The notes under the pieces were generated by a model, which was not told the DNA's origin, made no database searches, and worked only from the letters and a program-made list of their open reading frames with translations. Shown piece after piece: positions 4,925-61,117 of a stretch of 64,000 bases of DNA. Each line of letters opens with the position of its first letter. Within the stretch, counting starts at the first letter, position 1. The stretch covers positions 13,827 through 77,826 of the forward strand of contig JBOHNX010000001.1 of assembly GCA_050730875.1 (NCBI GenBank), read 5' to 3'. Position numbers and translations under genes: made by a program. Origin of the DNA: Candidatus Saccharimonadales bacterium. Lineage in GTDB: Bacteria > Patescibacteriota > Saccharimonadia > Saccharimonadales > EFPC-124.

Positions 4925-5000
4925 GGTGGGCTCTAGAGGACTCGAACCTCTGACCTCTTCCACGTCAAGGAAGCGCTCTAGCCAACTGAGCTAAGAGCCC
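4924..5000 (-). tRNA. tRNA-Val (GAC)
   Basis: Minus-strand cloverleaf. Acceptor GGGCTCT/AGAGCCC. Anticodon stem CTTCC/GGAAG with loop TTGACGT. CCA is encoded. Confidence 0.9.
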
Positions 5001-5060
5001 GCAGCACATTGTTTAACACAGATACTATAGCTTAACAGAGGTAGTTTTGCAAACCTGATA

Positions 5061-5090
5061 TTGCAATAATCTGTTTTGAGGTGTTATTAT
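5061..5090 (+). promoter_or_regulatory. Putative sigma-70-type promoter of the thrS leader
   Basis: TTGCAA, 18-nt spacer, TATTAT. Confidence 0.45.
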
Positions 5091-5094
5091 TGCT

Positions 5095-5261
5095 GCAGAG
5101 AGCGTTGAAGCGGCCTAACCACCCGCCGAGCTCCGCGAGCTACCGCGCTATTGTAGCAAAACGAGTGCTCTAGTTTACCTAGACTAGAGAAGTCCGGTGG
5201 AACCGCCCGAGATTACTTGGGTCCGAGACGCGCTGAATGATCCAGCGTGTTTTTATTTTTT
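5095..5261 (+). promoter_or_regulatory. T-box leader (Thr) with intrinsic terminator
   Basis: The T-box core AGAAGTCCGGTGGAACCGCC (5188-5207) has a UGGA bulge complementary to the U73-CCA end of tRNA-Thr. The candidate specifier ACC-A sits in the loop GCGG-CCTAACCAC-CCGC. The terminator ACGCGCTG/CAGCGTGT plus a T-run lies at 5228-5261. Confidence 0.7.
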
Positions 5262-5276
5262 AAAAGGAGATGCAGC

Positions 5277-7100
5277 ATGAGCGAGCAACACCTACATGCG
5301 ATGCGCCACAGTCTTGCGCACATCATGGCTAGCGCAGTTAAACGCCTTCACAAAGAGGCGAAGTTTGGTGTGGGACCAGTCGTAGAAAACGGTTTTTATT
5401 ACGATATCGACTTGCCTGCAACCTTAAGCGAAGATGACTTTTCGGCCATTGAAGCCGAAATGAAGAAGATCATTGCCGAGGACCAACCCTTTGAGCGATT
5501 TGAAATGTCGATTGAAGAGGCGATTGAGTGGGCAAAAAAAGAAAAGCAGCCTTACAAATTAGAGCTTCTTAACGATTTAAAACGCGCGGGCACTACCAGC
5601 GCAAAAGATCTCGATGCGGCCGAGTTAGGCTTGCCAAGCGATGCTAAAGCTGTAGAGAACGTCTCATTTTATAAGAATGGTGATTTTGTTGATCTATGTC
5701 GCGGGCCACACGTCGAATCAACTGGGAAAGTCGGCGCTTTTAAAGTAATGCGTGTGTCTGGTGCTTACTGGCGCGCCAAAGAGACTAATCCACAAATGCA
5801 GCGCGTGTATGGTGTCGCCTTTGCCGGCCAAGAGGCACTCGATGTCCACCTGAAGGCTCTGGAAGAGGCTAAGGCGCGCGACCACAGGATCCTTGGTAAG
5901 CAGCTAGATTTGTTTGCCTTTTCAGATCTAGTAGGACCTGGCTTACCTCTATTTACTCCACGCGGCACAACCATGCGTAAGCTTTTGAAGCAGGCGCTGC
6001 TACAAACAGGTGCTAAGTACGGTGGTCAAGAAGTTGAAATTCCACATATTGCAAAGCGTGAATTGTATGAAATTTCTGGTCATGCACAAAAATTCGCCGG
6101 CGAACTTTTTGGAGTAACAAGTCATTACGACGTCGACTTTGTTATGAAGCCAGTAAATTGCCCACATCATACGCAAATTTACGCTTCACAACCTCGAAGT
6201 TACAAAGATCTGCCAATCAACTACATGGAAACGACAATGCAGTATCGCGACGAAAAGCCTGGCCAGATTGGTGGCTTGGGTCGTGTTCGCGCCATTACCG
6301 TTGATGATGGTCATCTGTTTTGCACGGTCGATCAGATTAAGCAGGAAGTGGTTAAACTCTGCGATTTTATTAAGGAGTTCCATACTGCGCTTGGTATGTA
6401 TGGCGACCACTGGGTTTCGCTGTCGGTACGCGATTACAGCGCACCTGATCAATACATTGGCGACCCTGATGATTGGGATAAGGCCGAAGCTATGCTCGAG
6501 GAGCTAGCGACTGAACTAAAAATAGGCGCGCGAAAGATGGAAGGTGAGGCAGCGTTATATGGGCCAAAACTCGACTTTATGTACAAGGATATACTCGGCA
6601 ATGAGCGCCAGTTGTCGACTGTACAACTAGACTTTTCGACTCCTAAGCGTTTTAAACTGACGTATACAGACGCCGATGGCGGTGAAAAAGCGCCAGTTAT
6701 TATCCATCGGGCTATACTAGGTTCGTACGAACGCTTTATGGCTATCCTCCTAGAAAAGACTGCTGGCTGGCTGCCACTTTGGTTGGCGCCAGAGCAGGTC
6801 CGCATTTTGACTATTAACGACACTATCTTGGATTATGTTGAAGACATAAAAACAACGCTTAACAACACTGTACTCCATGCACCAGTAAAGTATAACGAAC
6901 TTCGTTTTAGCGTAGATGCGCGAAATGAATCGTTGGGCCGGAAAATACGCGACGCTGTTGAGATGAAAATTCCAGTTGTTGTAATTGTTGGTCCTAAGGA
7001 TGTTGAAGCAAAACAAGTAAGCATACGCCTGAAAGATAGAGAAGAAAAGGTTAAGCTCGAAGATCTGAGTGATTTTTTACAACAACTAGCAACTCATTAA
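5277..7100 (+). CDS. thrS: Threonyl-tRNA synthetase lacking the N-terminal TGS domain
   Basis: The ATG at 5277 follows AAGGAG. The protein starts directly at the editing-domain HxxxH motif (HAMRHSLAHIMA). Class II core and anticodon-binding regions are recognisable. Confidence 0.93.
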   Translation: MSEQHLHAMRHSLAHIMASAVKRLHKEAKFGVGPVVENGFYYDIDLPATLSEDDFSAIEAEMKKIIAEDQPFERFEMSIEEAIEWAKKEKQPYKLELLNDLKRAGTTSAKDLDAAELGLPSDAKAVENVSFYKNGDFVDLCRGPHVESTGKVGAFKVMRVSGAYWRAKETNPQMQRVYGVAFAGQEALDVHLKALEEAKARDHRILGKQLDLFAFSDLVGPGLPLFTPRGTTMRKLLKQALLQTGAKYGGQEVEIPHIAKRELYEISGHAQKFAGELFGVTSHYDVDFVMKPVNCPHHTQIYASQPRSYKDLPINYMETTMQYRDEKPGQIGGLGRVRAITVDDGHLFCTVDQIKQEVVKLCDFIKEFHTALGMYGDHWVSLSVRDYSAPDQYIGDPDDWDKAEAMLEELATELKIGARKMEGEAALYGPKLDFMYKDILGNERQLSTVQLDFSTPKRFKLTYTDADGGEKAPVIIHRAILGSYERFMAILLEKTAGWLPLWLAPEQVRILTINDTILDYVEDIKTTLNNTVLHAPVKYNELRFSVDARNESLGRKIRDAVEMKIPVVVIVGPKDVEAKQVSIRLKDREEKVKLEDLSDFLQQLATH

Positions 7101-13610: not shown

Positions 13611-14020
13611 GGTTGTCAGACTACTAGACGATCGCTTAGCCTTAGGGCTAAGAGGAAAGTCCGGGCAGCATAGGACAAGGCAGTTGTTAACCGCAACCGG
13701 GGGCGACCCTAGGGAAAGTGTCACAGAAACGAAACCGCCTTCACTAGTGAGGGTAAGGATGAAACGAGTGGGCCCAGCTCGTCTGGGATAGGTCTCTTTC
13801 TGCGAGAGCTTAAGAGACTGAAGGTAAGAGCCCACAGCGTGTCATGGTGACATGACACGGAGGTAAACCCTGCCTGCTGCAAGGAGGTCTGTTTTCCACC
13901 CTAAAGGTGGTAGTGGTTCCACTAAATAGACCGCATGAACCGCTTGACTACGACGGGCAACCGTCTAGCTAGATAGATGATCGTCCTGGACAGAACCCGG
14001 CTTACCGGTAGTCTGACATC
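13611..14020 (+). ncRNA. rnpB: RNase P RNA, bacterial type A
   Basis: Conserved GAGGAAAGTCCGGGC and ACAGAACCCGGCTTAC are present. The terminal P1 pairs GTTGTCAGACTAC with GTAGTCTGACATC. Confidence 0.9.
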
Positions 14021-31913: not shown

Positions 31914-31990
31914 GGGCGATTAGCTCAGCTGGTTAGAGCGCGTCACTGATAATGACGAGGTCGGAGGTTCGAGTCCCTCATCGCCCACCA
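31914..31990 (+). tRNA. tRNA-Ile (GAT)
   Basis: Acceptor GGGCGAT/ATCGCCC with discriminator A73. Anticodon loop CTGATAA. CCA is encoded. There is one A.C mismatch in the T-stem. Confidence 0.9.
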
Positions 31991-32169: not shown

Positions 32170-32319
32170 GAGAGCGCTTGAGAGCAGACAGGATTGCCTG
32201 GTGAAGGCCTTGCTGCCTGAACTCAAGAATGAGTTTGTAATTTAACAACTAGGTTTTTAATGATGTAAAAGGATGACGGCAAGTTGGTTATTACCAACTA
32301 CTAGTCAAACCAATGCATA

Positions 32320-35366
<3,047 letters not shown>

Positions 35367-58024: not shown

Positions 58025-58030
58025 CTAAGT

Positions 58031-58252
58031 ACTGCGTTTTGGTGTAAATTACATCAAATGAGTGGCTATCACCCACGAAGGCAGCGGGAAGAAAGTGGTT
58101 TAACGAGTAGAACCCGCCGGTCCACGACCCGTTATCGATCGTAAAGAAGTGCTTTTGAGATCACTCAAAAGAAGTTGGATGGTACCGCCTTTCAGGGTTC
58201 CAACACCATCTCTTCTAGAGTGATTTTTCTATATAAATAATTGAGGTGGAGT
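58031..58252 (+). promoter_or_regulatory. T-box leader (Ile)
   Basis: The T-box core AGAAGTTGGATGGTACCGCC (58170-89) has a UGGU bulge complementary to the A73-CCA end of tRNA-Ile. The candidate specifier ATC-A sits in the loop GTGG-CTATCAC-CCAC. Stem III is CTTTTGAG/CTCAAAAG. Confidence 0.7.
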
Positions 58253-61117
58253 ATGAGCAAAGAGAGCAAAGAGACCACAAAGACCACAAAGACTACCCTT
58301 GCCCAAGCTGAAGAAGCAATGCTTGAACTCTGGGATAAAGAGCAGACTTTTGAATTGAGTGTAAAGCAGCGCAAAGGCCGACCGCTATTTAGCTTTTACG
58401 ATGGTCCGCCATTTGCCAACGGCAAGCCGCACTGGGGCGGCATGATGACATCGGTACTAAAGGATGCAGTAGCTCGCTACAAAACAATGCGCGGTTATTA
58501 TGTGCCGAGGCGATTTGGTTGGGACTGTCATGGCTTGCCGCCAGAAATGCTGGCTGAAAAAGAGCTTAACGTATCAGGCAAAAAAGCTATCCAGCAATAT
58601 GGCGTTGAGAAGTTTAATAATTATTGCCGAACTTCTGTCCTGCGATTTACAGGTATGTGGCATGAATACGTGCGCCGCATTGGGCGATGGGTTGATTTTG
58701 AAAACGACTACCGCACCATGGACCCCGAGTACATGGAAAGTGTCATTTGGGCGTTTAAGCAGCTATACAAAAAAGGTCTCGTTTATGAAGGCGAGCGAGT
58801 CGTGCCCTACAGCTACGGTGCGCAAACGTCGCTTTCCAACTTCGAAACGCGTCTGGACGATAGCTACCGTGATCGAGAAGATATTACTGCAACGATTAAA
58901 TTCAGTCTTTCAGATGGCCGCTATATCTTAGGTTGGACCACCACCCCATGGACGTTACCCGCAAATATGTTGCTAGCCATTGGCAGTGATATTGATTACG
59001 TACAGGTTGATAATGACGGCGAGCAACTGATTTTGGCAGAAGCAGCTCTAGAGCGCTACGACGAGCTCGACGACGCCGAAGTCGTACGCCGCATGAAAGG
59101 TCATCAGTTGGTTGGCCTGAGTTACGAACCGCCGTTCGATTACTTTAAGGACGTCAAAGGCGCCTTTCGCGTCGTTGCGGCAGAATTTGTTAACACCGAG
59201 GATGGTGTTGGTATTGTGCATGTTGCTCCAGGGCATGGTGAAGATGACTTTTGGCTTGGCAAGCGCGAAGGAGTGCCGATTATTAGTCCAGTAGACGACG
59301 ATGGCCGCTTTACTAACGATGTCAGTGATTACGCCGGCCGTTTGGTCTTTGATGCGAATAACGAAATTATCGCTGACCTTGAAAAAAGCAAAAAACTCTT
59401 CAAGTCGGAACTCTACACGCATAAATATCCGCATTGCTGGCGCACCGATGTGCCAATTATTTACCGTGCCATGAGCGCATGGTATGTTGATGTACCAAAA
59501 ATCAAGGACCAGCTGCTTAAGACCAACCAAGAGGTCAACTGGATCCCGGCTAACGTAAAGAATGGTGCGGTTGGCAAGTGGCTAGAAGGCGCTCGCGAGT
59601 GGAACATGAGCCGCAAACGTTTTTGGGGTGCACCGATCCCTGTTTGGAAAACCGACGATGGTGAAGTGATTGTCGTCGGCAGTATTAAAGAATTGAAAGA
59701 GCTGGCGGTTGATCCCAGCAGTGTAACTGATTTGCACCGGCCATATATTGACAAGGTGGTACTAAAAACCAAAGACGGCAAGTTGGCACACCGTGTCGAA
59801 GATGTCTTTGACTGTTGGTTCGAAAGCGGTTCAATGCCGTTTGCTCAAATGCACTATCCTTTTAAGAATAAAAAGCTATTTGAAGAGGGATTTCCTGCTG
59901 ACTTCATTACTGAATATATTGGTCAGACGCGCGGCTGGTTTTACACACTGCATGTGCTGGCGGTGGCTTTATTTGGCAAGCCTGCGTTCAAAAACGGTGT
60001 CGCTCATGGGATTATTCTGGGCGAAGATGGTCGCAAAATGAGTAAGCGGTTTGGCAACTATCCGGAGCTGAACGCAGTCTTTGCCGTGAATGGCGCTGAC
60101 GCTGTCCGCTTTTACCTTTTGTCGAGCTCGCTCTTTAGCGGTGACACCGCGGCGTTTGATACAAAGGCACTTGTCGAGGCTCAGCGTAATGTCATTCAGC
60201 GCCTTAAGAATGTGCATAGCTTCTTTACTATGTATGCGACAGTCGACAAGTGGCAACCGGCCAAGGAGCTCAAAGAGCCAAAGTCGGACAATGTTCTTGA
60301 TAAATGGATGCTCTCACGCCTCAACGAAACAATCGTGGCAGTGACAAAACATGCAGATGCCTACGATACGCCGCGACTTGGCAAGCTACTTGCTGAGCTA
60401 CTTGATGACACAAGTAACTGGTATGTGCGTCGCAGTCGCCGCCGTTTTTGGAAGAGCGAAGACGATGGCGATAAGCAGCAGGCCTACGAAACACTCCATT
60501 ACACATTGGTGCGACTCACACAGTTGCTTGCACCGTGGACGCCGTTTGTTAGTGACGAACTTTGGCGCGACCTCACCAAAGACATGAATTTGCCGCAATC
60601 GGTGCACTTAAGTGACTGGCCAGAGGCGGGCAGGGTAGTTAAGAAATCACTCGACGAAATGCAGAAGGCACGAGATGTCATTACCGAAGGCCTCAGCCAG
60701 CGCGCTGCTGCCAAAATTAAGGTGCGCCAGCCGCTTGCGAAGGTGACTGTGCCGAAGCTACCAGAAGTGTACCGGGATATCTTGGCTGAAGAGCTCAATG
60801 TAAAGGTTGTGAAGCTAGATGGCAAGAAGGTAGAACTTGATACGGAGCTGACGGATGAGCTGAAAGCCGAAGGCGTCATGCGCGACCTTGTGCGCCACGT
60901 GCAAAATTTGCGTAAGAACGCTGGTTTGAACGTCGACGACCGGATCGTGCTGCATATCGAGAGCAGCGATGCGCTTGTACAGCGAGCATTAAAGGATTTT
61001 GCTCATGTCATTAAACAAGAAACGCTCGCAAAAGAACTGACGGATGAGCCACAAGCTCACACTGCGGATGCAAAAATCGAGGGCGTAGAAGTGAAGCTCT
61101 CGCTCGACAAAGCGTAA
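58253..61117 (+). CDS. ileS: Isoleucyl-tRNA synthetase
   Basis: The ATG at 58253 follows GAGGTGGAG. Contains a HIGH-like PFANGKPHWGG, KMSKRFGN and a CP1 editing domain. The N-terminus has a KETTKTTKTT repeat. Confidence 0.95.
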   Translation: MSKESKETTKTTKTTLAQAEEAMLELWDKEQTFELSVKQRKGRPLFSFYDGPPFANGKPHWGGMMTSVLKDAVARYKTMRGYYVPRRFGWDCHGLPPEMLAEKELNVSGKKAIQQYGVEKFNNYCRTSVLRFTGMWHEYVRRIGRWVDFENDYRTMDPEYMESVIWAFKQLYKKGLVYEGERVVPYSYGAQTSLSNFETRLDDSYRDREDITATIKFSLSDGRYILGWTTTPWTLPANMLLAIGSDIDYVQVDNDGEQLILAEAALERYDELDDAEVVRRMKGHQLVGLSYEPPFDYFKDVKGAFRVVAAEFVNTEDGVGIVHVAPGHGEDDFWLGKREGVPIISPVDDDGRFTNDVSDYAGRLVFDANNEIIADLEKSKKLFKSELYTHKYPHCWRTDVPIIYRAMSAWYVDVPKIKDQLLKTNQEVNWIPANVKNGAVGKWLEGAREWNMSRKRFWGAPIPVWKTDDGEVIVVGSIKELKELAVDPSSVTDLHRPYIDKVVLKTKDGKLAHRVEDVFDCWFESGSMPFAQMHYPFKNKKLFEEGFPADFITEYIGQTRGWFYTLHVLAVALFGKPAFKNGVAHGIILGEDGRKMSKRFGNYPELNAVFAVNGADAVRFYLLSSSLFSGDTAAFDTKALVEAQRNVIQRLKNVHSFFTMYATVDKWQPAKELKEPKSDNVLDKWMLSRLNETIVAVTKHADAYDTPRLGKLLAELLDDTSNWYVRRSRRRFWKSEDDGDKQQAYETLHYTLVRLTQLLAPWTPFVSDELWRDLTKDMNLPQSVHLSDWPEAGRVVKKSLDEMQKARDVITEGLSQRAAAKIKVRQPLAKVTVPKLPEVYRDILAEELNVKVVKLDGKKVELDTELTDELKAEGVMRDLVRHVQNLRKNAGLNVDDRIVLHIESSDALVQRALKDFAHVIKQETLAKELTDEPQAHTADAKIEGVEVKLSLDKA

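Follow-up and report, generated by a model that had tools for sequence, protein, structure and literature searches.

An unusually reduced T-box-type leader with an intrinsic terminator upstream of thrS in Saccharibacteria

Introduction

T-boxes are a model for the recognition of one structured RNA by another. In the canonical architecture represented by the Rfam family RF00230, for example upstream of Bacillus subtilis tyrS or thrS, a K-turn, a distal Stem I, a specifier codon with a following purine in an internal loop with an S-turn, Stem II and the IIA/B pseudoknot are combined with Stem III and a 7-nt UGGN-ACC bulge, the N of which matches the tRNA discriminator base, and are coupled to a terminator/antiterminator logic. 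In the published view, which derives from structural work, transcription-level T-boxes depend on a long Stem I for gripping the tRNA elbow, and a truncated Stem I hardly binds tRNA without Stem II (PMC7583486, PMC11297988). All T-boxes with an ultrashort Stem I characterised so far are translational (PMC7583486). Such are the actinobacterial ileS T-boxes of Mycobacterium tuberculosis and Nocardia farcinica, which, in the accounts that PMC7583486 and PMC11297988 give of Sherwood et al. (2015), possess a K-turn, a very short stem with an apical specifier plus purine, the IIA/B pseudoknot and a canonical discriminator (purine string, Stem III, UGGN bulge), and lack the elbow-binding distal Stem I; the S-turn of their Stem II clamps the codon-anticodon helix and is reportedly essential, and the Shine-Dalgarno (SD) sequence is sequestered. 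On the other hand, glyQS and some alaS T-boxes are transcriptional and dispense with Stem II as well as IIA/B, while retaining the long elbow-binding Stem I (PMC4695836, PMC7583486). Their specifier is G+C-rich (GGC or GCU), in line with the published proposal that Stem II is required only for A+U-rich codons (PMC4695836, PMC7583486).

The leader upstream of thrS in the Candidatus Saccharimonadales genome analysed here, within a contiguous stretch of 64,000 nucleotides (the window), shares features with each of these systems and coincides with none. The K-turn, the very short stem with apical specifier and purine, the absence of a distal Stem I, the pseudoknot and the canonical discriminator are common to the actinobacterial ileS T-boxes, whereas Stem II is missing, an intrinsic terminator precedes a free SD, the specifier loop comprises 9 nt instead of 6-7 nt and the amino acid is threonine instead of isoleucine. 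In terms of TBDB class II, the actinobacterial-type translational T-boxes, the apical specifier loop is found, but Stem II S-turn docking and SD sequestration are not. With the glyQS and alaS T-boxes the leader has in common the (here probable) transcriptional mode, the absence of Stem II and a G+C-rich specifier (ACC), which fits the proposal on A+U-rich codons; in contrast to them, it retains the pseudoknot but not a long Stem I. Compared with canonical RF00230 members, it agrees in the K-turn, the specifier plus purine, IIA/B, Stem III, the 7-nt UGGN-ACC bulge, with an N that fits U73 of the tRNA-Thr(CGU) of the window, and the terminator/antiterminator logic, but the specifier lies in a terminal loop, and both distal Stem I and Stem II are absent. 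Under the published rules for Stem I and Stem II such a leader should bind tRNA poorly unless something compensates. Among the papers searched, none dealt with T-boxes in Saccharibacteria, Patescibacteria or the CPR.

Results

Comparative sequence analysis confirmed the thrS leader (window positions 5100-5261, forward strand, as for all features below) as a genuine, though unusually reduced, T-box-type leader in a Saccharibacteria genome. The original prediction of a thrS T-box in a CPR-type genome is thereby borne out, and the T-box core, the specifier hairpin, the terminator and the SD were all found where it had placed them. The downstream gene, with SD AAGGAG at 5264-69, ATG at 5277 and stop at 7100 (5264-7100 in total), is thrS (TIGR00418, 586 bits against a cut-off of 384). 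In local searches with RF00230, proposed at the outset as a check, the thrS leader obtained 32.2 bits (E = 1e-5) and a second leader in the window, upstream of ileS, 35.8 bits (E = 1.4e-6); these matches are significant locally, and both scores lie far below the curated gathering threshold of 93 bits. The thrS leader aligns with the model from end to end (positions 1-219), including the K-turn, IIA, Stem III, the T-box bulge and A1/A2, and the deletions concern the whole distal Stem I, in which 74 model positions are reduced to 7 nt, and Stem II. The low score is thus due to these two deletions, as the other parts match well, and it is the reason why the leader is missed by standard annotation. 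Correspondingly, no T-box at gathering score was detected across the window, and none of 20 homologous thrS leader loci reached the gathering threshold; in the whole-window Rfam scan by E-value the ileS leader was the sole T-box listed, the thrS match having been lost to filters. The core GGTGGAACCGCC is located at 5196-5207, with the bulge bases UGGA at 5198-5201. When searched as the 12-mer GGTGGNACCRCG with up to two mismatches, it yielded 30 matches against 21.7 expected in shuffled sequence, a count so near expectation that the motif alone is no evidence.

A promoter is predicted at 5061-5090, with the -35 hexamer TTGCAA (5061-5066), an 18-nt spacer and a TG-extended -10 hexamer TATTAT (5085-5090), which would place the transcript start at about 5096-5099, directly at the K-turn. 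Among 54 homologous leaders found with nhmmer at the equivalent position upstream of thrS, 53 have a TANNNT hexamer at most 18 nt upstream of the C-stem, in 31 of these 53 ending 6-7 nt before it. The -10 element is therefore so near the K-turn that little or no room is left for a longer Stem I, and the elbow-binding platform of a long Stem I, with its AG bulge and distal loop, is indeed absent from the thrS leader. Instead, an ultrashort Stem I (5100-5133) shows a fixed geometry in all 54 leaders. Its K-turn is built from the C-stem GAGC/GCUC (5100-03 with 5130-33), the bulge GUU and tandem G.A pairs (5107-08 with 5128-29); both GA dinucleotides are invariant, and pairing in the C-stem is complete (100% of cells of the alignment), with compensatory changes in all four pairs. 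The upper stem GCGG/CCGC (5110-13 with 5123-26), part of the hairpin GCGG-CCTAACCAC-CCGC at 5110-5126, has 4 bp in each of the 54 leaders and is closed by a terminal loop of 9 nt (5114-5122), a length likewise common to all 54. Compensatory changes occur in each of the eight pairs of Stem I, with pairing in 97-100% of cells.

Within this loop lie the specifier ACC (5118-5120) and the purine A5121 (specifier and purine 5118-5121), identified from the alignment of the 54 leaders. The codon is ACC in 45, ACU in five and ACG in four leaders, with A and C invariant, and it is followed by A in 51 and G in three. Because any third base gives a threonine codon in the four-fold box ACN, the changes seen there cannot on their own prove the codon identity. 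The suggestion that the specifier is presented in an apical hairpin loop, reminiscent of the reduced Stem I of actinobacterial T-boxes, holds for 54 of 54 leaders, all with ACN, and the position of ACC in a specifier context is reproduced by the alignment-based fold, with which RNAalifold agrees. A loop ending in 'codon-AC', proposed as a rule, did not withstand the comparison, since beyond the codon conservation is confined to the following purine, and the last loop base varies.

Directly adjoining the K-turn, with nothing in between, follows the Stem IIA/B H-type pseudoknot (5134-5157), of which Rfam aligns IIA and of which the pairing in the window was read from the sequence, with IIA formed by CGCG 5134-37 and CGCG 5144-47 and IIB by GCUAC 5139-43 and GUAGC 5153-57. 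Among homologues, 96% of the cells of IIA are paired, with changes from UA to CG; for IIB (alignment columns 45-51 with 61-67) the figure is 85%, and six of its seven pairs have compensatory changes; compact variants of the pseudoknot covary as well (L031, GAGG/CCUC; L041, UAGCUU/AAGCUA). An alternative register of IIB, columns 40-47 with 62-69, was dropped, since a scan along the diagonals for every pair of columns favoured the former with more pairing and more pair types. Stem II with its S-turn is absent, the 34 nt between Stem I and Stem III being accounted for by the 24-nt pseudoknot and a 10-nt linker. The first part of the discriminator (5163-5191) conforms to the motif RRRxG-Stem III-AA as defined in PMC7583486, with the purine string GAGUG (5163-67), Stem III (5168-76 with 5181-89) and AA (5190-91). 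Stem III is a hairpin in the minimum free energy (MFE) fold and comprises five pairs in the alignment, all with compensatory changes; it is absent in about 40% of the members of this leader class. The antiterminator (5192-5229), delineated by the Rfam alignment, covariation and RNAalifold, consists of helix A1 with the 5' strand GUCCGG (5192-97) and the 3' strand CCG-A-GAC (5223-29), the 7-nt T-box bulge UGGAACC (5198-5204), invariant in all leaders, and the A2 hairpin (5205-5222) with the closing pair G5205.U5222. All four pairs of A2 covary, and outer A1 covaries across classes as GUC/GAC, GCC/GGC and GUU/AAC.

The intrinsic terminator with its U-tract (5225-5261) has the stem GAGACGCGCUG / CAGCGUGUUUU at 5225-5253, a hairpin of 11 pairs, and continues with TATTTTTTAA up to 5261; its energy in the window is -15.1 kcal/mol. 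Terminator and antiterminator overlap only in GAGAC (5225-29, about 5 nt), with which the 3' strand of A1 ends. The final three nucleotides of A1 are also paired in the lowest part of the terminator hairpin in 51 of 54 leaders, and a U-rich tail follows. The middle base of this triplet shows a three-way covariation, GUC/GAC being accompanied by a terminator 3' strand with GUU or GUC and GCC/GGC by GCU. Such covariation of the terminator base with A1 would not be expected unless the two structures were in competition, and competition is what we conclude for this leader. The difference between the ON and OFF energies amounts to +1.8 kcal/mol in the window and to a median of +2.9 kcal/mol in 39 homologues, a gap so small that four base pairs with the tRNA plus stacking could tip the switch. 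In the ON state a hairpin of 6 bp, much longer in homologues, is left in the window, followed by G and then U5. SD and ATG of thrS lie downstream of the terminator in no alternative helix, the SD is unpaired in the MFE fold, and no complement to it was found within the leader. The expectation of a clean terminator ahead of the SD, and hence of a transcriptional platform, agrees with the retention of hairpin and U-tract in homologues and with the overlap with A1 in 51 of 54. Three features overlooked by the original prediction are the lack of Stem II, the position of IIA/B directly after the K-turn and the overlap of terminator and antiterminator by only about 5 nt.

At 59 of 80 Saccharibacteria thrS loci a match was obtained with a covariance model derived from the homologous leaders; in some sister lineages the leader has been lost or replaced. 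An alignment of 30 sequences has 95.1% of its cells paired and compensatory changes in 25 of its 34 pairs, a level reached by none of 500 shuffles, and slid controls pair at 25-44%. RNAalifold independently recovered the same consensus fold. Across at least 54 genomes, the ThrRS proteins of which share 51-69% identity with that of the window, the codon's AC, the class of the following purine, the G.A pairs of the K-turn, UGGAACC and the purine string are invariant. Single sequences are less informative. The full-length MFE fold of the thrS leader is devoid of Stem I, which is seen only in a truncated fold, and neither of the two single-sequence MFE folds forms A1; when the discriminator alone was folded under constraint, A1 formed in the window sequence and not in most homologues. 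With incomplete MFE folds and modest MFE z-scores (-2.5 and -1.6), the structure of the leader therefore rests on the comparative data.

Concerning the tRNA partners, UGGA of the thrS leader is complementary to U73 of tRNA-Thr(CGU), the only tRNA-Thr of the window, encoded together with its CCA end at 1706-1782, and UGGU of the ileS leader to A73 of tRNA-Ile(GAU) at 31914. The match of bulges and discriminator bases in these two tRNAs, put forward in support of genuine T-boxes, is real. However, the anticodon CGU reads ACG and cannot pair with ACC, so that the tRNA-Thr at 1706 supports the discriminator match only and is not the partner of the codon. The sensed isoacceptor is most likely tRNA-Thr(GGU). 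A gene for this cognate tRNA is not present in the window, nor was one found in 60 thrS loci, where the only tRNA was a divergent tRNA-Val(GAC).

Discussion

Taken together, the thrS leader is most probably a functional T-box of minimal plan that controls thrS by transcription attenuation upon sensing uncharged tRNA-Thr. The transcript would begin at the K-turn, on top of which the 4-bp stem would display ACC and the purine in the 9-nt apical loop, while the pseudoknot IIA/B, via the short purine linker, would position the discriminator composed of Stem III, A1, the UGGAACC bulge and A2. With uncharged tRNA, U73-C-C-A would pair with UGGA and stack on helix A1, which would then retain GAC of CCGAGAC, so that the terminator would lose its bottom three to five pairs beside the U-tract and RNA polymerase would continue into thrS. 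With the tRNA charged or absent, A1 would not be stabilised, GAGAC would pair with GUUUU and the full terminator would stop transcription before the SD. From the conserved architecture we infer that the leader binds tRNA and allows tRNA-dependent read-through, that loss of the bottom pairs would suffice to prevent termination, and that the pseudoknot, or something else, would offset the missing Stem II and elbow contact. The hairpin left in the ON state might on its own still terminate transcription.

The translational mode of every characterised ultrashort Stem I T-box (PMC7583486) and the overlap of terminator and antiterminator by only about 5 nt would suit a T-box-derived leader that binds tRNA-Thr and acts post-transcriptionally, on translation initiation or mRNA stability, with a constitutive or leaky terminator. 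We consider this improbable, since the SD at 5264-69 follows the U-tract and is complementary to no part of the leader, hairpin and U-tract are kept in homologues, and the terminator base covaries with A1 as expected only under competition; translational control in particular was rejected, because the SD lies outside every alternative helix. Slightly less probable still is a decaying relic that no longer senses tRNA and survives as a 5' untranslated region with a partial terminator. Two canonical modules are missing and some sister lineages have lost or replaced the leader, as decay would have it, but the functional residues are invariant across at least 54 genomes despite ThrRS proteins only 51-69% identical to the window's, and the helices change in sequence yet keep their pairing, compensatory substitutions that are not expected of a relic.

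Autoregulation of thrS by its own product is known from E. coli. An operator for ThrRS working by tRNA mimicry in the same way, to which the hairpin with its 9-nt loop bears a superficial likeness in the form of an anticodon arm, is nevertheless very unlikely here: a complete T-box discriminator with UGGA would be useless in a protein operator, the ileS leader obeys the same logic with AUC and UGGU, and the loop carries the codon ACC and not a threonine anticodon (GGU, CGU or UGU), on which ground this reading was rejected. That an intergenic region resembles the T-box consensus by chance has a negligible probability. Although the 12-nt core with up to two mismatches is no commoner than in shuffled sequence and no Rfam match reaches the gathering score, chance is refuted by the local Rfam match (E = 1e-5), the 59 homologous loci and the covariation in 25 of 34 pairs.

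Saccharibacteria may possess a hitherto unnoticed class of minimal T-boxes acting on transcription, a generalisation for and against which we see the chances evenly balanced. Its members would make two base-paired tRNA contacts, through the codon in the apical loop and the UGGN bulge, without an elbow-binding Stem I or a Stem II S-turn and, in about 40% of cases, also without Stem III, the K-turn-borne pseudoknot and a terminator overlap of 3-5 nt doing the work of the missing parts. Neither the rule that a transcriptional T-box depends on a long Stem I nor the rule that Stem II is indispensable to a truncated Stem I would then be general. Conserved in about 60 Saccharibacteria genomes with its terminator but without a long Stem I or Stem II, the leader lacks both required parts and therefore offers a natural minimal design for testing both requirements. 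As the leader family scores about 60 bits under the Rfam threshold, T-box regulation in the CPR is invisible to standard annotation. Saccharibacteria are episymbionts that obtain amino acids from their hosts. A sensor of tRNA-Thr charging, as predicted from the leader, would be one of the few regulatory devices identified so far in these bacteria and might become a tool for the control of gene expression.

The second leader of the window (58030-58252), an Rfam match upstream of a gene confirmed as ileS, provides an internal comparison. Its specifier hairpin GTGG-CTATCAC-CCAC (58062-76) exposes AUC (58068-70) in the 7-nt apical loop CUAUCAC, UGGU is found at 58181-84, and IIA/B and Stem III are present. 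Like the thrS leader, it has, together with its relatives (L081-L089), an ultrashort Stem I with apical specifier loop, IIA/B, Stem III and a terminator with U-tract. Unlike the thrS leader, it retains a Stem II containing S-turn motifs (GAAGAA / AGUAGAA), and its K-turn carries an additional inserted hairpin; the pairing partner of its terminator 3' strand lies far upstream, in the 3' half of Stem III. Within one genome, the leader with the A+U-rich codon AUC has thus kept Stem II and the one with the G+C-rich ACC has lost it, a natural test of the weak-codon idea. A horizontal-transfer link to Actinobacteria, to which the known hosts of Saccharibacteria belong, is purely speculative. T-boxes upstream of thrS are, to our knowledge, not characteristic of Actinobacteria. 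The actinobacterial-type leaders in the ileS scan share the Stem I plan GA-U-CCGG-CCAUCA-CCGG-G-GA, and the window's IleRS is 47-51% identical to the proteins of most loci with such T-boxes against 42-51% for other non-Saccharibacteria loci, overlapping ranges from loci that carry no taxonomy.

Results

Judged from its sequence and those of its relatives, the leader upstream of the threonyl-tRNA synthetase gene thrS (5100-5261) is most likely a tRNA-Thr-sensing transcription attenuator. Every feature listed in the original prediction is present on direct reading of 5095-5280 of the forward strand, namely the specifier hairpin GCGG-CCTAACCAC-CCGC (5110-5126), the T-box core GGTGGAACCGCC (5196-5207), a hairpin followed by TTTTTATTTTTT (5225-5261), the SD sequence AAGGAG (5264-5269) and the ATG start codon (5277) of an ORF that encodes threonyl-tRNA synthetase (TIGR00418, 586 bits versus a cut-off of 384). 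On the same strand just upstream of the leader lies a sigma-70-type promoter (TTGCAA, 18 nt, TG-extended TATTAT; 5061-5090), from which a tRNA-Val(GAC) gene diverges.

At the Rfam gathering score, no T-box was matched in the window, and the 12-nt core motif by itself shows no excess over chance. A permissive scan of 5000-5300 aligned the T-box model RF00230 over its full length with 32.2 bits (E = 1e-5) and with high posterior probability at the Stem I basal K-turn, Stem IIA, Stem III, the T-box bulge and the antiterminator helices A1 and A2. The score is low because distal Stem I has shrunk from 74 model positions to 7 nt and Stem II is wholly deleted; the covariance-model check proposed with the original prediction gave a significant local match, but one below the membership threshold. 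The thrS match did not survive the filters when the whole window was scanned permissively. The leader of ileS (58030-58252; originally noticed at 58062-58076) reached 35.8 bits (E = 1.4e-6 in the local search, 2.6e-4 across the window). As 0 of 20 homologous thrS leaders reached the Rfam threshold, routine annotation does not detect the family.

The 80 Saccharibacteria thrS loci fetched by a search with the window's ThrRS, the closest in the genome collection, all derive from MAGs, the majority labelled Saccharibacteria (Saccharimonadales), to which the window's own genome also belongs. With the window leader as query, nhmmer found homologous leaders immediately 5' of thrS in 54 of these loci; the covariance model R1, built from 30 of the 54, matches 59 of the 80, and two further leaders are cut by contig ends. 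Within the window R1 matches the thrS and ileS leaders only, and thrS and ileS are the only aminoacyl-tRNA synthetase genes among 27 ORFs compared with NCBIfam, including all 17 of at least 330 aa.

One fixed Stem I geometry fits 54/54 leaders. Its 5' side runs from a 4-bp C-stem through a 3-nt bulge, GA and a single base into a 4-bp stem topped by a 9-nt loop; on its 3' side the 4-bp stem returns, and then come a single base, GA and the second strand of the C-stem. So read, Stem I is a standard K-turn capped by a very short hairpin. A -10-like hexamer is found at most 18 nt before the K-turn in 53/54 leaders, most commonly ending 6-7 nt before it (31/53), so that the transcript should start with Stem I or very close to it, leaving little or no room upstream to lengthen it. 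Counted over seven helices of the 30-sequence alignment, pseudoknot included, pairing occurs in 95.1% of cells and compensatory changes in 25 of 34 pairs; 0/500 shuffles reached these values, sliding the partner columns by 1-3 lowered pairing to 25-44%, and an independent RNAalifold run returned identical nested helices. Covariation, family match and the distribution among 59/80 loci thus support a genuine thrS T-box, and the alignment-based fold places ACC in a hairpin loop, as originally proposed.

The register of IIB (columns 45-51 with 61-67), picked by a scan of all diagonals, places the IIA/B pseudoknot CGCG-A-GCUAC-CGCG-CUAUU-GUAGC at 5134-5157 of the forward strand; in two compact variants (L031, L041) the IIB sequences differ yet remain complementary. 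Stem III, which has been called indispensable for the T-box discriminator (PMC7583486), is present in the window's leader and missing in 23/54 homologues (e.g. L019:2314-2425, L028:2327-2445), where helix A1 directly follows the purine string, as in ...AUAAGUAAAAGUCCGG.

The specifier, at loop positions 5-7, is ACC in 45, ACU in 5 and ACG in 4 of the 54 leaders, with A and C invariant and the base 3' of it A in 51 and G in 3. As ACN is a four-fold codon box, it is the AC invariance, the purine rule and the match with the downstream gene that are informative; no other reading frame of the loop encodes one single amino acid throughout the 54 leaders. The flanking loop positions vary, so the 'codon-AC' loop ending of the original prediction does not hold as a conserved rule. 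The UGGAACC bulge is invariant. The tRNA-Thr gene at 1706-1782, presented earlier as the cognate partner, ends in U73-CCA complementary to UGGA, but its anticodon CGU cannot read ACC, and a GGU isoacceptor would therefore have to be encoded outside the window; a search of the retrieved loci found no such gene. The four leaders with ACG would use the CGU isoacceptor. As an internal control, AUC and UGGU of the ileS leader are matched by tRNA-Ile(GAU) with A73 at 31914; the UGGU/A73 match is as first noted. The specifier with its purine (5118-5121) spells ACCA, like a tRNA 3' end, and CCACC (5119-5123) is complementary to GGUGG of the T-box (region 5196-5200). In single-sequence folds the T-box strand was paired with Stem I in this region, which could represent a self-inhibited state or mere coincidence.

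In the expression platform, helix A1 (GUCCGG, 5192-97, with CCG-A-GAC, 5223-29) and the terminator stem (GAGACGCGCUG/CAGCGUGUUUU, 5225-5253, before the rest of the U-tract), both on the forward strand, overlap by GAGAC only. In 51/54 leaders the U-tailed terminator hairpin is predicted to include the final three bases of A1 in its basal pairs, and the middle base of this triplet covaries with both its partners: leaders with GUC/GAC have GU(U/C) in the 3' strand of the terminator, those with GCC/GGC have GCU in 4/6 and G.U in the other two, and GUU is accompanied by AAC. Such three-way covariation is what mutually exclusive pairing of A1 and terminator predicts. The SD lies past the U-tract and in no alternative helix, so that control is most likely transcriptional, in agreement with the mechanism originally suggested. 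The A1-enforced state is less stable than the terminator state by 1.8 kcal/mol in the window (median 2.9 in 39 homologues), a difference that the energy gained from four base pairs with the tRNA, together with stacking, could plausibly overturn. The ON state is the weak point of the attenuation model: in it a 6-bp hairpin persists in the window, much longer in homologues, and ends one base before U5. That selection keeps the bottom three to five terminator pairs suggests that their loss would stop termination.

In one subgroup (L007, L017, L065, L066, L072-L075, L079), the terminator hairpins share an apical motif UGCGAGAG/UGCGAGAA (e.g. UUAAAUGCAGUGCGAGAGCAUUUAA), which is also found upstream of T-box-less thrS in L064, L067, L069 and L080.

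Discussion

Anatomically, the thrS leader truly belongs to the T-box functional class; the two structural features of that class which it lacks are a long Stem I and Stem II. T-boxes with an ultrashort Stem I are mostly translational and actinobacterial (PMC7583486), and in the M. tuberculosis ileS T-box, which unlike the thrS leader has Stem II, its shortening abolishes tRNA binding (PMC11297988). T-boxes without Stem II are confined to glycyl and some alaS leaders, which also lack IIA/B and retain a long Stem I (PMC4695836, PMC11297988), whereas the thrS leader retains IIA/B on an ultrashort Stem I. The combination of ultrashort Stem I, absent Stem II, IIA/B directly on the K-turn and an intrinsic terminator was not found in the literature, nor was any mention of T-boxes in Saccharibacteria or Patescibacteria; coverage of this search was incomplete, so that novelty here means 'not found', short of 'proven absent'. 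TBDB searched its translational model in Actinobacteria only and was otherwise seeded from Rfam hits (PMC7778990).

When the N-terminal half of IleRS served as query, the scan yielded nine related loci whose leaders could be aligned (L081-L089, those of L081 and L082 identical). Where their 5' part was recovered, these leaders keep Stem II, marked by an S-turn signature in which GAAGAA faces AGUAGAA, in contrast to the thrS leader. Stem II has been explained as important for A+U-rich codon-anticodon helices (PMC7583486), an idea that retention with AUC and loss with ACC in the window's genome would fit. The scan also gave G+C-rich loci whose ileS T-boxes are of the typical translational actinobacterial kind, and three further leaders (L126, L141, L154) that combine an ultrashort Stem I with Stem II and U-tract hairpins, so that ultrashort Stem I with a terminator is not unique to thrS. 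One of them, the ileS leader L126:917-1110 (metagenome contig SDBT01001159.1; loop UUAUCAG, no Stem III), shares its platform with one thrS class (GCCUAGG-UGGUACC...CCGAGGC and a terminator), and the minimal-overlap platform is hence not restricted to thrS.

The window's ileS leader carries an extra 9-bp hairpin (58039-58059) at the expected K-turn bulge. The 3' strand of this leader's terminator, GAGUGAU (58219-58226), before the U-tract, pairs with the Stem III 3' half and linker, not with the antiterminator 3' side, and six leaders show covariation of this pairing (AUCACUC/GAGUGAU, AUCACCU/AGGUGAU, CACCUCAAUU/AAUUGAGGUG and others). The IleRS itself (58253-61117) scores strongly with the models of the mupirocin-resistant, type 2 MupA/MupB, at 700-720 bits, under their cut-offs. 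In the metagenome scan, the majority of its best relatives outside Saccharibacteria (47-51% identity) stand behind actinobacterial-type T-boxes, a lead towards the horizontal transfer speculated on originally rather than evidence for it.

A T-box is absent from the six closest thrS relatives (L001-L006; ThrRS 70-81% identical). In its place, some 70-130 nt before thrS (e.g. L001:480-560), lies an upstream ORF of 14-15 codons that ends in two to four threonine codons, proline and stop (e.g. MPRKVVTVVRTTTP*, MSQLWKTTGTTTTP*, MCRLVTAVTLITTP*). Its UAG stop falls inside the loop of a conserved hairpin or at the loop's edge (CCCCUUAGGGGG in 4/6). This looks like a threonine leader-peptide attenuator that replaces the T-box in these sister lineages.

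Among other RNAs of the window, the 23S rRNA (32318-35366) measures 3049 nt against a model of 2925 positions, with several insertions of 40-70 nt in its 5' region (e.g. ~32604-32641, 32673-32745); rRNA insertions are known for the Saccharibacteria group (PMC11665869). The RNase P RNA (13616-14020) carries a 58-nt insertion.
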